A stretch of DNA of 38,421 nucleotides from Acidobacteriota bacterium (GCA_039184055.1 JBCDBH010000008.1:1-38421), one strand, 5' to 3'. Counted from the first letter of the stretch, positions 27,598 through 31,283 are shown. Notes: generated by a model not told the origin, from the letters alone. Numbers and translations: made by a program.

Positions 27598-29235
27598 CTA
27601 GGGTCGGTTTGTCGTCAAAGCTCCCGGCCGACCGACCGGCCAAGAGCGTGGGGCTCCGATGATCACGGGAAGGGGCTCGCTGACATCGATCCCCACACGC
27701 ACGTCGATGGCGGCTCGCAGGGTGATCGGGCCGGGTGGAGCGAAACGCAGCACGAGATCCCAACGCTCGCCGACCGACGGGCCCAGACGTGGTGTCACCT
27801 CGACCGCGGTGAGCACACGGCCGAGACCGTGCTGCCGCGCGAAGATCTCGGCCAGCAACGACACCTGCGTCGAGACGAAATTGAGCAGTCGGTCACGCGC
27901 CTCGATGCCCCGGCGTTGCCGCCCGTCGTACAGACGATCGAGAAAGCTCTCGAGACCCGGTGGCACCGGCGCCGGCAAAGTGCCGAGCAGCGCTGCGGTC
28001 GACCAGGTGAACAAACCGCGGGGCTCGGGTCGTACACGAGGCACACGGCGACCGGACGACAACGTTTGCCAGCCGACCAGGTGACCGGGTAAGGAGATGC
28101 GCTCGACCCGCTGCGACGATGCGTGCAGCTGTTCGGCCAGGGTGTCGACGAGCAGAGTGTCGAGCCCCGCCACCGGTGCCAGCGCGAAAACCGCAGAGTC
28201 GTCGAGCTCCAAGGTCCAGTCGACGGCCGTCGCGAGCACCGGATCGCGAGCCATGGCCTCGAGGAGCCGGCGACCGCTCACCGGACGCAGGTCGCCCGCA
28301 GGGGTTTCGAGCGCATCGAGAAGCCGTGCACCACGCGGATCGAAAGCGAGCCGACCGATGGCGTAGACCGGTGGCTGCCGTACCGGGCCAGGCGCTACCG
28401 CGACACGCTCACGTGACGGCTCGGCGATCGGCGGCGGTGGCTCTTCGAACGGGCCGACGTAGACCGTGACGAAGAGCTCGTCGTCGTCGCCCCGGCCGAT
28501 GGCGACGTTTTCGAGCCGACCGCCGACGGCACGGCGCCGCCAATCGTCCACTGGCTCGGGGGATATACCGAGGGCTCGACACCAGAGCTGCCAGGAGGCG
28601 TCGGCGTGCTCGGCGCCTCGTTGGTCGACCTTCGCGGGTGCGGCGTCGAGCGACACGCGACCGCTGGTCGGATTCTCGACACGCAGAATCTGTACCCGTG
28701 GCCCGGCCTCGGCGAGCATCGCCACCCAGCCGTCGACGAGCTGCTGGTCGCGGCTTCGTGGCCGTGGCGTCAGCAGGCGCTCGGCCGCCAACCGGGCGGC
28801 CTCCGGGGTTTCGCCGCGTGTGGGCAGATAGCGTTTGATCGCCCACGCCGAGGCGCCGGGGCGCCATTCGAGGCTCCAGCCGTACACCCGGTCCACCGCC
28901 TCGATACCGGAGCGAAAATAGGCGCGGTACCCCACCCGGCCGTCGAGCAACGCGGCGCCGAGCGCCCCGGCCATGCGCCAGCCACCGAATTGCTGCTCGG
29001 CGACGTGCATGGCGACGCTCGGCATGGCGAGCCGACGGCACACCTCGCGTATGTCCTCGGGATCGGCACGCTCGGCCGGGAAACGGGCGAAATAGCGGTT
29101 TTGACGTAGGCCGTCGGTGGACAGCTTGATGCTCGGCGACACGGTCACCCCGTCGACTCCGGCGATCCGCAGAAGCTGATGGGGAAGAAGAAAACACTGC
29201 ACCGAGTCTGTGCTCACCGACGGCATGGTCGCCAC
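27598..29235 (-). CDS. Hypothetical protein with C-terminal domain paralogous to the C-terminal domain of the adjacent subtilisin (PatA/PatG-DUF-like)
   Basis: The 545-aa protein has a C-terminal ~250 aa that aligns with the protease C-terminus (aa ~420-674). Matching stretches are 'VYAIGRLAFD/ IYVVGNLGYD', 'VDWTLELDD/ LIWTLDIDG', 'RVERISLPGHLVG/ VQRVSVPGALAG', 'RGLFTWST/ RGLIGWNT' and 'IDVSEPLPVIIGAPRSW/ IDVSTELPVRVGEVSSW'. Confidence 0.6.
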   Translation of the reverse strand: MATMPSVSTDSVQCFLLPHQLLRIAGVDGVTVSPSIKLSTDGLRQNRYFARFPAERADPEDIREVCRRLAMPSVAMHVAEQQFGGWRMAGALGAALLDGRVGYRAYFRSGIEAVDRVYGWSLEWRPGASAWAIKRYLPTRGETPEAARLAAERLLTPRPRSRDQQLVDGWVAMLAEAGPRVQILRVENPTSGRVSLDAAPAKVDQRGAEHADASWQLWCRALGISPEPVDDWRRRAVGGRLENVAIGRGDDDELFVTVYVGPFEEPPPPIAEPSRERVAVAPGPVRQPPVYAIGRLAFDPRGARLLDALETPAGDLRPVSGRRLLEAMARDPVLATAVDWTLELDDSAVFALAPVAGLDTLLVDTLAEQLHASSQRVERISLPGHLVGWQTLSSGRRVPRVRPEPRGLFTWSTAALLGTLPAPVPPGLESFLDRLYDGRQRRGIEARDRLLNFVSTQVSLLAEIFARQHGLGRVLTAVEVTPRLGPSVGERWDLVLRFAPPGPITLRAAIDVRVGIDVSEPLPVIIGAPRSWPVGRPGALTTNRP

Positions 29236-29258
29236 CTCGTAGTCGTGGTTGTCGGGGG

Positions 29259-31283
29259 TCAGCGCAGCGGGTTGGAGAAGGTCGCCCAGCTGCTCACTTC
29301 ACCGACGCGGACCGGCAGCTCGGTGCTGACGTCGATGGTGAAACGGAACACCTGGCGCGCACGCTCGAACACGTTCTGCGGATCAAAGAACACGAAATTG
29401 ACGTCCCAGCTGTCGGCCCCCGGGGAAGCGAAACGGCTGCGCGCCACGTCGACCGTGTCGAGCGCCAACGACGCGCTGATCTGTCGTTGCAACACGTCGC
29501 TGAGCCGGAAGGCCATGGTGGCGGCGGCGTTCATCGCGCGGTCGGTCGGCGCCAACCCCGGATTGCGTAGCTCGTAGAGGAAGCGATCGACGAGGCTCTG
29601 CAGCTGTTGGCGATGCTCGGCGCTGCCGTTGCCGTCCAACGCCCCATTGACCAGTTGTTGGGTGTTCCAACCGATCAGGCCACGCAAATTGGGGCAAATG
29701 GCGCCGAGCTCACGGTTGTTGGACAGACGAGCCTGGCCGGCGAGAGCACCCGGAACCGATACGCGTTGCACGTTGGCGTACTCACCCTGTTGACCGGCGA
29801 AGAGCTCGGCCAGCCGCTGGTAGGCGGCCGCGGCGTAGGGACCCTCGGGTCGTACCGAATAGGCCGGCACACCATCGATATCGAGCGTCCAGATCAGGTC
29901 GGACGAGGCGTACGGTTGCTCGGCGAGCAATGCGAGCAAGTTGTTGGGATCGTCGGGGTTGCCGTCCATCTCGGCGGCGAACGACTCGCGCATGGCGCGG
30001 CTGCCGAAGTCGTAACCGAGATTTCCGACCACATAGATCAGCTGGCTGGCGGCGACGCTACCGGAGCTACCGCCACAGCCACAGTCGGACGGCTGGATAC
30101 CGGCCGGCTCGGCGACGGTCGCGGTTTCGGCTTCGAGCCACGCAACGGCAGTTTGGGCGTCGCTCTCGGCAACGGGCTGGACCTCGTGACTGTCTTCTTG
30201 ATGATCGACCATGGCCGTCTTCTCCTCATCGGGTGTTTCTGCCGCGCGCGAATCGGGGCGGCTCGTGGGTTGGGGAACGTCGGAAGCGGCCACACCCGTC
30301 GTGGGTGGAGCCGCGGAACACAGAGCTGGAGCAGGCAGCGGGCAGAACGACGGCACGGCGATCCCGGCCTCGCTCGGCGTGATCGCGGCGGTCTCGGCGG
30401 TCTCGGTGCGTAGCCGCCGCACCGCCGCTTCGATATCGAGCCGACCGGCGAGAATGCGCTGGCAATCGCCATCCCGTGCCGGCTCGCACGGACGGGCGCT
30501 GGCGAGCAGGGCGTCGTAGACGGCCCGGACGTCGATCGCGCCATGTCGTTGTTGCAGACTGAGCAAGAGGGCCACGACACCGCTGGCGACCGCGGTCGCG
30601 CAGCTGGTCGAGGTGCTGTGACGGATGCCACCGCCGGCGCGCGGACCCGGAATGTCCTCGCCGAGCACCAACAACCCGTTGGAGCGGTACTTGTCGCCCC
30701 AATTGCTGAACGGCAAAGGGCGCTCCTGCCGATCCATGGCGCCGACCGCGAGCACACCGGGCATTGCGGCCGGCACGTGTAGGCAGGCACAGCCGTCGTT
30801 GCCCGCGGCGGCGACCAAGAGCGCGCCGGCAGCCGCACACCGCTCGACCGCGGCGACCAGCACCGGGCTCGACCATGCGCCCGCGGTCAGCTCGCCGCCG
30901 CTCAGATTGATCACCCGAGCACCGAGATCGAGCGCCTGCTCGATGGCCCTTGCCAAACGCTCTTGTGGACAGGACGCCCCGTCGAGCGACCAATAGATCG
31001 GGATCGAGATGGCGTCACAATCCGGGACCAGCCCGACGAGATCGTCACCCGATGCGGGTTGGGCCATCAGAATGCCGGCGATGTGAGTGCCGTGTACCGA
31101 GACCTCGACGTCGGTCGGCATCTCGGCCAGCGGCGCCTCGCGCAATCGCGCCCCGGCGAAGCAGGCGTGCTCGAGATCGACGCGACCATCGAGAATGGCC
31201 ACCCGGACCTCGGGCGTGCCACGGCTGTCACGCCAAAGCGTCGTCAACGCAGGGATCGAGACGGACAGGTCGTGCTGAGACAA
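29259..31283 (-). CDS. Subtilisin-like (S8) serine protease of the cyanobactin PatA-type, with linker and C-terminal DUF domain; no signal peptide
   Basis: The Asp motif is 'VAILDGRVDLEHACF'. The His motif is 'HGTHIAG'. The Asn/oxyanion motif is 'VAAAGNDGCACLHVPAA'. The Ser motif is 'TSCATAVASG'. A Pro/Ala-rich linker precedes a ~250-aa C-terminal domain. The start is TTG at 31283 (first start after an in-frame TAG), with GGGGTG upstream. Confidence 0.8.
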   Translation of the reverse strand: MSQHDLSVSIPALTTLWRDSRGTPEVRVAILDGRVDLEHACFAGARLREAPLAEMPTDVEVSVHGTHIAGILMAQPASGDDLVGLVPDCDAISIPIYWSLDGASCPQERLARAIEQALDLGARVINLSGGELTAGAWSSPVLVAAVERCAAAGALLVAAAGNDGCACLHVPAAMPGVLAVGAMDRQERPLPFSNWGDKYRSNGLLVLGEDIPGPRAGGGIRHSTSTSCATAVASGVVALLLSLQQRHGAIDVRAVYDALLASARPCEPARDGDCQRILAGRLDIEAAVRRLRTETAETAAITPSEAGIAVPSFCPLPAPALCSAAPPTTGVAASDVPQPTSRPDSRAAETPDEEKTAMVDHQEDSHEVQPVAESDAQTAVAWLEAETATVAEPAGIQPSDCGCGGSSGSVAASQLIYVVGNLGYDFGSRAMRESFAAEMDGNPDDPNNLLALLAEQPYASSDLIWTLDIDGVPAYSVRPEGPYAAAAYQRLAELFAGQQGEYANVQRVSVPGALAGQARLSNNRELGAICPNLRGLIGWNTQQLVNGALDGNGSAEHRQQLQSLVDRFLYELRNPGLAPTDRAMNAAATMAFRLSDVLQRQISASLALDTVDVARSRFASPGADSWDVNFVFFDPQNVFERARQVFRFTIDVSTELPVRVGEVSSWATFSNPLR

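Follow-up and report, generated by a model that had tools for sequence, protein, structure and literature searches.

Here we analyse a 38,421-nucleotide stretch of DNA from an Acidobacteriota bacterium (GCA_039184055.1, JBCDBH010000008.1:1-38421; the whole stretch is referred to as the window) and describe three consecutive genes that are best read as a conserved, previously undescribed, non-cyanobacterial gene cluster that is related to those of the cyanobactins and resembles the clusters for peptides that are made ribosomally and then modified post-translationally (RiPPs). The first gene encodes an S8-family protease of the cyanobactin leader-protease type. The second encodes a 545-residue protein whose N-terminal part—here called X—very probably adopts the alpha-beta-beta-alpha barrel (ABBA) fold of prenyltransferases, as judged from a predicted model. 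Both proteins end in the domain of unknown function (DUF) of PatA and PatG. The third gene, lying directly behind them, encodes a small cysteine-rich protein with a putative leader and protease site. We suggest that the protease would release a large cysteine-rich core, that X may prenylate it and that the paired DUFs would hold the machinery together.

A conserved cluster outside cyanobacteria

The order protease, X (with or without the DUF) and small cysteine-rich open reading frame (ORF) is found in the window and in related loci L001–L003, L004, L005, L007 and L011, and at least 9 independent loci, at 29–48% identity, contain intact ORFs in the common order. Locus L006 carries a frameshifted small ORF, and contig P0002 has a 110-residue gene at the corresponding position. 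The L006 ORF (5273-5398) resembles a precursor, begins MRMRLPAHRELS and runs out of frame some 12 residues in, probably through a frameshift in the assembly or as a pseudogene of the 110-residue precursor type present in L011. Each locus, from the window through L001–L011, has one S8 gene only.

The muscoride cluster of Desmonostoc (L012: MusA, a methyltransferase–DUF protein, MusF1/F2, MusD and MusE) served as the reference for tblastn searches, which found no YcaO heterocyclase, oxidase, F-type prenyltransferase, PatB, PatC or MusE in the window and 11 related loci (absence threshold for MusD and ThcOx, E<=1e-3). Only the A-type protease and the DUFs matched among these queries, so that the cluster is not a canonical cyanobactin cluster. 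Homologues of PatD and of the PatG macrocyclase were likewise absent by tblastn, as a preliminary description of this DNA, generated from the sequence alone, had stated. That description had also presented the protease and the 545-residue protein as an unusual pair for a non-cyanobacterial genome. The two genes do form a pair, but not as a stray cyanobactin fragment: they are part of a conserved cluster that includes a candidate precursor gene of 98 codons, which had been overlooked. The host is an Acidobacteriota metagenome-assembled genome (MAG), the related loci have G+C contents of 55–69%, and a related cluster lies in the cultured Myxococcus sp. SDU36 (L013; CP077414.1, about 1.194–1.200 Mb). 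We found no earlier description of this gene cluster in the searchable literature.

A PatA-type protease with a TTG start

Both large ORFs lie where they had been placed (Table 1). The 674-residue protease scores 498.8 bits against the NCBIfam model of PatA/PatG family cyanobactin maturation proteases (TIGR03895; cutoff 421.05), and its catalytic triad (D32/H64/S227) and oxyanion residue (N162) are intact. The PagA structure 4H6W matches at 3.5e-72 and is collinear over residues 8–296, and the PatA structure 4H6V matches the S8 domain at 8.7e-66, again collinearly (3ZXX was also aligned); the PatG macrocyclase 4AKS reaches 129 bits only and aligns from residue 50 only. Alignment with the PagA, PatA and PatG macrocyclase structures reveals no macrocyclase insert. 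By sequence family, the enzyme is a PatA/PagA-type (A-type) leader protease. The motifs VAILDGRVD and AAGNDGCACLHVPAA, described earlier as PatA-like, do line up with those of PatA and PagA. The S8 domain is followed by an Ala/Pro-rich linker.

The closest relatives of the protease are cyanobacterial A-proteases (about 40% identical, for example MusA), with a few non-cyanobacterial ones. The latter include Phreatobacter and Ca. Electronema; the present genome is not the only one outside cyanobacteria with a PatA-family protease. A PADLOC scan for defence systems gave a generic subtilase match only.

The TTG start proposed for the protease is supported because a TAG stop lies two codons 5′ of it and homology to PagA begins at residue 8. 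Later in-frame starts (L13, V28) would remove conserved residues, and TTG is the sole start that fits the conserved N-terminus. One gene caller begins the protein at V28 (31202 rather than 31283; 647 residues, P0003), with loss of the IPxLxxLW segment.

An ancient pair of cyanobactin DUFs

Residues 416–666 of the protease and 290–532 of the 545-residue protein are identical at 76 of 253 aligned positions (30%; E=6e-24, the single significant segment in BLASTP). The C-terminal similarity of some 250 residues that had been noticed by eye is therefore far beyond chance in a formal alignment, which also contains every one of the paired motifs then listed: YxxGxLxxD, WTLxxD, RxSxPGxLxG, RGLxxWxT, DRxxN and IDVSxxLPV...SW. 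Pfam identifies PatG_D (PF18047, 1.4e-11) and PatG_C (PF18065, 1.1e-27) in the protease; in the 545-residue protein, PatG_C lies above the cutoff (2.3e-07, 31.3 bits) and PatG_D below it (0.02, 15.8 bits), and the PatG-DUF structure 4UVQ matches residues 289–534 at 1.6e-21. These sequence matches confirm the region common to both proteins as the cyanobactin PatA/PatG DUF (PatG_D + PatG_C), in agreement with the earlier suggestion. The pairing of the DUFs stands; the PatG-like relic that it had seemed to imply as the second partner does not, as the 545-residue protein is an apparent ABBA-fold domain fused to the DUF. The NCBI annotation starts this protein 6 codons past the first GTG (29217 rather than 29235), giving 539 residues (AAGD38_01465).

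The paralogy holds, but it is ancient. The two DUFs of the window are 28% identical, compared with 69% for the DUFs of MusA and the Mus methyltransferase, and in a crude neighbour-joining tree the protease-linked DUFs lie near cyanobacterial DUFs while the X-linked DUFs occupy separate long branches. The X-linked DUFs of this tree form their own fast-evolving lineage. Because of this low identity and the separate branches, the duplication appears to be old and the pair to have been maintained.

The DUF also occurs, as a C-terminal module, on an AhpC/redoxin protein (L010 1345-2364), on a methyltransferase (L012 12134-13768) and on FAD_binding_4, S8 and X domains (also P0137 and P0138), and methyltransferase–DUF fusions are found in both the X family and the muscoride cluster. 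Structural work described the PatG DUF as a novel fold and suggested DUF–DUF association (Mann et al. 2014, PMC4259220), and the function of the cyanobactin DUF was still unassigned in 2025 (PMC12639078). Its presence on five kinds of catalytic partner would favour a role in docking or assembly.

X defines a rare family of predicted ABBA fold

X, of about 265 residues, has no Pfam match at E<=10, no NCBIfam match and no PDB sequence match. A word-indexed search of 5.8 billion proteins returned, besides the X–DUF protein, a single relative of 36% identity, and just 26 proteins were recovered when 1.84 billion cluster representatives were searched exhaustively by HMMER with a profile of X only. 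Most of these are X–DUF fusions; the others are X–S8 protease–DUF, X–FAD_binding_4–DUF, X–methyltransferase–DUF and free-standing X. The DUF is present in 21 of the 26, a cyclase fusion in none.

An AlphaFold 2 model of the excised domain, built with an alignment of 23 X domains, has a predicted local distance difference test score of 91.6 and a predicted template modelling score of 0.89, and consists of ten strands with interleaved helix pairs. When it was compared with the PDB using Foldseek, the top 50 matches were all ABBA prenyltransferases (CymD, PriB, PagF, KgpF, LimF, TleC, DMATS1, DciF and CloQ), and the model leaves us with little doubt that X has this fold. The 23 domains are 20–36% identical to X of the window and share the invariant or near-invariant residues S35, K37, R47, Y48, Y103, R/K104, Y106, W124, K/R134, Y136, R193, S195, F255, T257 and Y259. 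In the predicted model they fall on seven of the ten strands and are spaced i/i+2, with [KR]-x-Y on two strands. We take this pattern of basic residues and tyrosines to be the signature of DMATS-type ABBA enzymes, in which Lys/Arg form the diphosphate site and Tyr the shield.

X is nonetheless a separate sequence family, lacking a detectable link to the characterised F-type peptide prenyltransferases. Independent support for isoprenoid chemistry is strongest in the distant loci L008 and L010, where the gene next upstream of X encodes a cis-prenyl-diphosphate synthase (PF01255), the two synthases being 43% identical to each other. We regard it as an even question whether X actually transfers prenyl groups.

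A candidate precursor with a putative, cyanobactin-like cleavage motif

The small ORF begins 16 nucleotides past the X–DUF stop, is preceded by a GGAGG Shine–Dalgarno sequence and is followed directly by a terminator-like hairpin, the strongest stem in a 15.7-kb scan; terminator-like sites in the whole scan are no more frequent than expected by chance, and the hairpin is called on its strength and position. The gene recurs behind the protease and X–DUF pair in seven further independent loci, homologous small proteins occupying the matching position in L001–L005, L007 and L011. Overall they are 56–65% identical; the stretch that runs from the first pair of Cys to the terminal ...TPYC is 67–81% identical and keeps all of the 10 Cys; the flanking enzymes are less conserved (X–DUF, 29–35%; protease, 41–43%). 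The predicted core is under strong constraint.

A profile of the cysteine-rich core (residues 34–81) aligns weakly with thioredoxin (non-significant, E=0.075), the invariant C-Y-P-C falling on C-G-P-C. As a motif, C-Y-P-C belongs to the CxPC redox type, and the weak alignment extends into the following helix.

The small ORFs of L009 (free-standing X), L010 (X–DUF) and L013 (X–FAD–DUF) have unrelated cysteine-rich cores and share with the window type the start M-[RKHL]-[LMIV]-P-x-Q. Searched as a regular expression through 165 kb in six frames, this start gave 13 matches: 11 cluster-adjacent ORFs, the frameshifted L006 copy and one other. A second motif, G-[VI]-x-P-S, stands 1–5 residues ahead of the first Cys in each of four independent types of core—G20-I-T-P-S24 followed by S-C-C in the window, GIVPS in L009c, GVSPS in L010 and GVKPS in L013—against a background frequency of 1–2.5e-4 per residue. 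L009 carries several such leader-bearing small genes.

PatA-family enzymes cleave at G(L/V)E(A/P)S. In the muscoride precursor MusE, GVSPS immediately precedes VPTT, which we take to be the muscoride core. Its position matches recognition sequence II (RSII), where A-proteases cut to leave a free amine (reviewed in PMC4663559). The LAELSEEAL-type recognition sequence I and recognition sequence III are absent from the window precursor. As a conserved leader and protease site ahead of variable cores is a hallmark of RiPPs, we regard the small ORF as the probable substrate, and on these motifs the 98-residue protein is likely to be cleaved by the protease.

Neighbouring genes and window edges

Table 1 Features of the cluster and its neighbours in the window
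Feature	Coordinates	Strand	Details
S8 leader protease (by family) with cyanobactin DUF	29259..31283	minus	674 aa, TTG start
Protease S8 domain	about aa 8-296 (31262..30396)		PagA 4H6W alignment
Protease DUF	aa 408-667 (30062..29283)		4UVQ match 6e-42
545-aa X–DUF protein	27598..29235	minus	GTG start
X domain, predicted ABBA prenyltransferase fold	28441..29235	minus	aa 1-265 of the 545-aa protein
Pro-rich linker and divergent cyanobactin DUF of the 545-aa protein	27598..28440	minus	DUF aa 289-534 (28371..27634)
Candidate precursor peptide	27286..27582	minus	98 aa, 10 Cys; NCBI MEM8960120.1, annotated hypothetical
Predicted leader	aa 1-24		MRMPTQ...G20-I-T-P-S24
Predicted core	aa 25-98, about 27510..27289		about 74 aa, 10 invariant Cys, ends ...LTPYC
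Terminator-like hairpin	27257..27279	minus	10-bp stem, 9 G–C pairs, T-rich tail
Secreted SpvB/FG-GAP/RHS giant (TcB/TcC-like)	20677..27222	minus	2181 aa; SpvB 5.7e-15, FG-GAP_3 9.2e-10, RHS_repeat 1.7e-07
Alpha/alpha-toroid protein	18904..20673	minus	589 aa; starts 3 nt past the RHS stop
Reprolysin-like (M12B) zinc metalloprotease, secreted	31569..33782	minus	737 aa; HEHGHNLGLQH

Downstream of the small gene lies a giant protein with SpvB, FG-GAP and RHS repeats. Giants of like architecture stand directly downstream in the window, L007, L009 and L010, the X domains of which share only about 24% identity; the giant of L007, at the matching position, is 48% identical over 1889 residues, and relatives also carry TcdB_toxin_midN. 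No RHS gene is found beside L001, L004, L005, L011 or L013, and some other loci carry DUF6603 and TIG-domain giants instead. The window giant has no recognisable C-terminal toxin domain after its repeats. Past YNDPTG, its tail (20677-21700, about 330 residues) runs from a Gly-rich hydrophobic part through an acidic Asp/Ser/Gly-rich part to a Thr/Ala-rich end, ...AAVLAAL. In L007 (11231-11850) a similar tail (...LLLLLAL) is encoded by distinct small ORFs that come behind the RHS gene, perhaps as a result of frameshifts.

The next gene encodes an alpha/alpha-toroid protein, the repeats of which, in the C-terminal part of about 300 residues, resemble those of terpene cyclases and prenyltransferase beta subunits; its Pfam matches are all below cutoff (SQHop_cyclase_C at 1.8e-05, SQHop_cyclase_N and Prenyltrans). 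A homologue directly follows the precursor in L001 (36% over 301 residues, E=3e-49), and a fragment in L007 is 39% identical. An invariant motif, D-x-D-x-T-[SA] (D361-x-D363-x-T365), overlaps the class II DxDDTA motif and is incomplete. DADDTA itself occurs in an L009 protein only, for which tblastn gives no support of homology to the window toroid protein. An alanine-dehydrogenase/PNT-like ORF (16902-18938, plus strand) converges on the toroid gene with a 3′ overlap of about 35 nucleotides and marks the downstream boundary of the cluster.

On the other side, directly upstream, the metalloprotease gene was considered as a cluster member and rejected: it has no homologue in the related loci, and a GC-rich hairpin and T-run, seen by eye at about 31515-31540, follow its stop. 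Beyond it, some 1.35 kb (33830-35198) holds no convincing ORF and has the lowest G+C fraction of the window (0.578); a lone tRNA-Ile(GAU) at 34731-34803 (plus strand), outside any rRNA operon, is the sole Rfam match there at the gathering threshold. The flanks carry unrelated genes for a DinB_2 + FGE-sulfatase protein of EgtB-like architecture (36989-38278, plus strand), a PolX-family DNA polymerase with a PHP domain (7958-9724, minus strand) and a beta-lactamase/DUF3471 protein (6173-7885, minus strand).

A proposed pathway and its alternatives

We propose that the operon, in the order protease–DUF, X–DUF and precursor, would encode the enzyme core of a RiPP-like maturation outside cyanobacteria. 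The protease would remove the leader at G-I-T-P-S24, releasing a core of about 74 residues with 10 Cys; X would move an isoprenoid from a prenyl diphosphate onto this core or its new N-terminus; and the paralogous DUFs would hold the pathway enzymes together or on the substrate. The product is probably a lipidated, disulfide-rich mini-protein with an antagonistic or toxin-related role; the cluster repeatedly stands beside Rhs/Tc-like giants and the toroid protein. As a whole chain, from leader removal through prenylation by X to DUF-mediated assembly, this is the account towards which we lean.

Several observations weigh against it. The core is very large for a RiPP, and no single nucleophile beyond Cys or Tyr is common to all of the cores. 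No cyanobactin precursor model matches the small protein at threshold, the best being TIGR03678 at E=0.21. Profile–profile comparison (hhalign) of X with MusF1/F2 gives a probability of 0.1%, none of the 23 X domains matches TIGR04445 at E<=1 and X has no PF19156 match, MusF1 itself scoring 268.9 bits as an F-family member. An ABBA fold is no guarantee of activity, PatF having been reported inactive. No prenyl-diphosphate synthase gene lies beside the window cluster, and no exporter is conserved in the cluster, though disulfide formation would need export. For the DUF, the lack of PatG-DUF binding to linear PatE in vitro (PMC4259220) counters a simple leader-binding role.

A wider version of the same pathway would make the product a peptide–isoprenoid hybrid of its own class, with a longer isoprenoid on the core, the toroid protein acting on the lipid and the product joining the Rhs/Tc-like giant as a toxin component. 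The donor would come, in some relatives, from the dedicated cis-prenyl-diphosphate synthase; the toroid protein would carry out a class II-type cyclisation or a second S-prenylation; and the DUF, unexplained since 2005, would dock an interchangeable protease, prenyltransferase, oxidase, methyltransferase or redoxin. We consider this version unlikely.

Maturation could instead be by the protease only, yielding a disulfide-rich, bacteriocin-like mini-protein, with X a dead ABBA barrel that serves as a DUF-tethered peptide chaperone or scaffold. Such a reading draws on the kinship of X to known prenyltransferases at fold level only and on the missing donor gene in the window cluster; PatF, of the patellamide pathway, is reportedly an ABBA member of this inactive kind. 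The cysteine-rich cores, moreover, resemble small disulfide-rich bacteriocins, one faint match being to the fulvocin-C-related NF033852 (E=2), and the redoxin–DUF fusion of L010 points to thiol/disulfide chemistry. Five basic residues and four Tyr that stay invariant on separate strands at such low identity are not, however, what a dead barrel would lead one to expect, and synthase genes stand directly upstream of X in two distant loci; we judge this explanation somewhat improbable. The linkage to the giant suggests another: that the trio matures a lipidated or cysteine-rich partner subunit of the SpvB/FG-GAP/RHS protein—cargo, adaptor, receptor-binding or membrane-anchoring—and makes no free natural product. 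The recurrence of the giant despite the divergence of X speaks for this, as does the low-complexity tail of the window RHS protein, where a toxin domain is not recognisable; the five loci without an adjacent RHS gene and the strong hairpin between precursor and RHS gene speak against it, and no case is known to us in which a Tc or Rhs protein has a RiPP-like partner encoded by a gene of its own. It is compatible with the proposed pathway rather than exclusive of it, and we rate it as quite unlikely.

The small ORF might also be a PatB-like accessory, the true substrate being encoded elsewhere or being a larger protein. It takes the place of PatB after the A gene, and the muscoride-cluster PatB (L012 13809-14009, plus strand; TIGR04220, 2.9e-38) begins MRLPKLAPPVKR, ends Cys/Gly-rich and matches the small Myxococcus ORF (L013 7757-7954; CP077414.1, about 1,194,455-1,194,652) at E=8e-4 over the first 16 residues in BLASTP. 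Yet no small ORF matches TIGR04220 even at E<=10; a hidden Markov model (HMM) of the leader finds PatB at E=0.1 only, ranked under a decoy; and G-[VI]-x-P-S before hypervariable cores, together with the several such genes of L009, is the behaviour of precursors. Homology of the leader to PatB or PatE N-termini is at best weak, and we think the accessory explanation very unlikely. The likeness of the window leader (27511-27582) to the start of PatB may hint that PatB is itself a relic or an alternative precursor-like peptide. Finally, the genes could be the remains of a cyanobactin cluster that was acquired by horizontal transfer and is now in decay, a PatA and a PatG-DUF relic with no current function; PatD, the PatG macrocyclase, PatF, PatB, PatC and PatE are all absent and the second DUF is divergent enough for PatG_D to fall below its cutoff. 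This is contradicted by the gene order kept across independent loci, by the intact protease triad, by the strongly constrained precursor core and by an X domain that folds confidently with conserved residues, and it has scarcely any claim on belief.

If the proposed pathway holds, the A-protease and DUF machinery would extend beyond cyanobacteria to Acidobacteriota and Myxococcota, acting on substrates larger by an order of magnitude than the core of any cyanobactin. X adds a new and rare sequence family of predicted ABBA fold to enzymes that are sought after for late-stage peptide lipidation. The DUF is the sole element common to at least five catalytic partners, making the docking hypothesis of Mann et al. 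(2014) directly testable, and the Myxococcus sp. SDU36 cluster offers a cultured experimental system. The recurrent SpvB/RHS linkage, of which we found no description for a RiPP-like module in the searchable literature, may point to a link, so far unrecognised, of RiPP-like maturation with polymorphic toxins.

Comparison with known systems

The nearest likeness is to the linear prenylated cyanobactins of the muscoride (mus) and aeruginosamide (age) type. The protease is 39% identical to MusA over its full length, and a second, non-protease DUF enzyme directly follows the A gene in both muscoride and the window cluster (a methyltransferase–DUF in mus, X–DUF here). As in these systems, there is no macrocyclase, an ABBA-fold enzyme (predicted, for X) is present and a G-V-x-P-S-type motif precedes the core. 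The muscoride locus, however, is cyanobacterial with a G+C content of 40%, whereas the present loci are richer in G+C and the window belongs to an Acidobacteriota MAG; it has a YcaO heterocyclase, an oxidase, PatB, PatC and an F-family enzyme, all of which the window cluster lacks; and the ABBA domain of the window comes from another sequence family and itself carries the DUF as a fusion partner. A heterocyclase and azoline oxidase are optional for cyanobactins, and heterocycle-free cyanobactins exist. Cyanobactin cores have 3–20 residues, compared with the far longer, 10-Cys core predicted here.

Measured against the ABBA aromatic and peptide prenyltransferases (CymD, PriB, FgaPT2 and other DMATS-type enzymes; PagF, PatF, KgpF, LimF and DciF), X is 7–16% identical, with no HMM or hhalign match. 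It is shorter than the DMATS-type enzymes and differs in its frequent fusion to the DUF.

The giant shares SpvB, FG-GAP and RHS repeats with the TcB/TcC components of Tc toxins and with Rhs polymorphic toxins; it differs in its low-complexity tail, and no TcA-like gene was seen. A further parallel is offered by NctPC, in which an ABBA-barrel prenyltransferase and a class II cyclase are fused and act on RiPP tryptophans (reviewed in PMC13290415). Likened by description, the NctPC/ChrPC systems correspond to the co-conserved ABBA-like X and toroid protein here, although the toroid protein of the window is separate from X and its DxDD motif is incomplete (DxDxT). By this analogy, a logic of prenylation plus cyclisation, if it operates in the present cluster, would have a precedent in NctPC.

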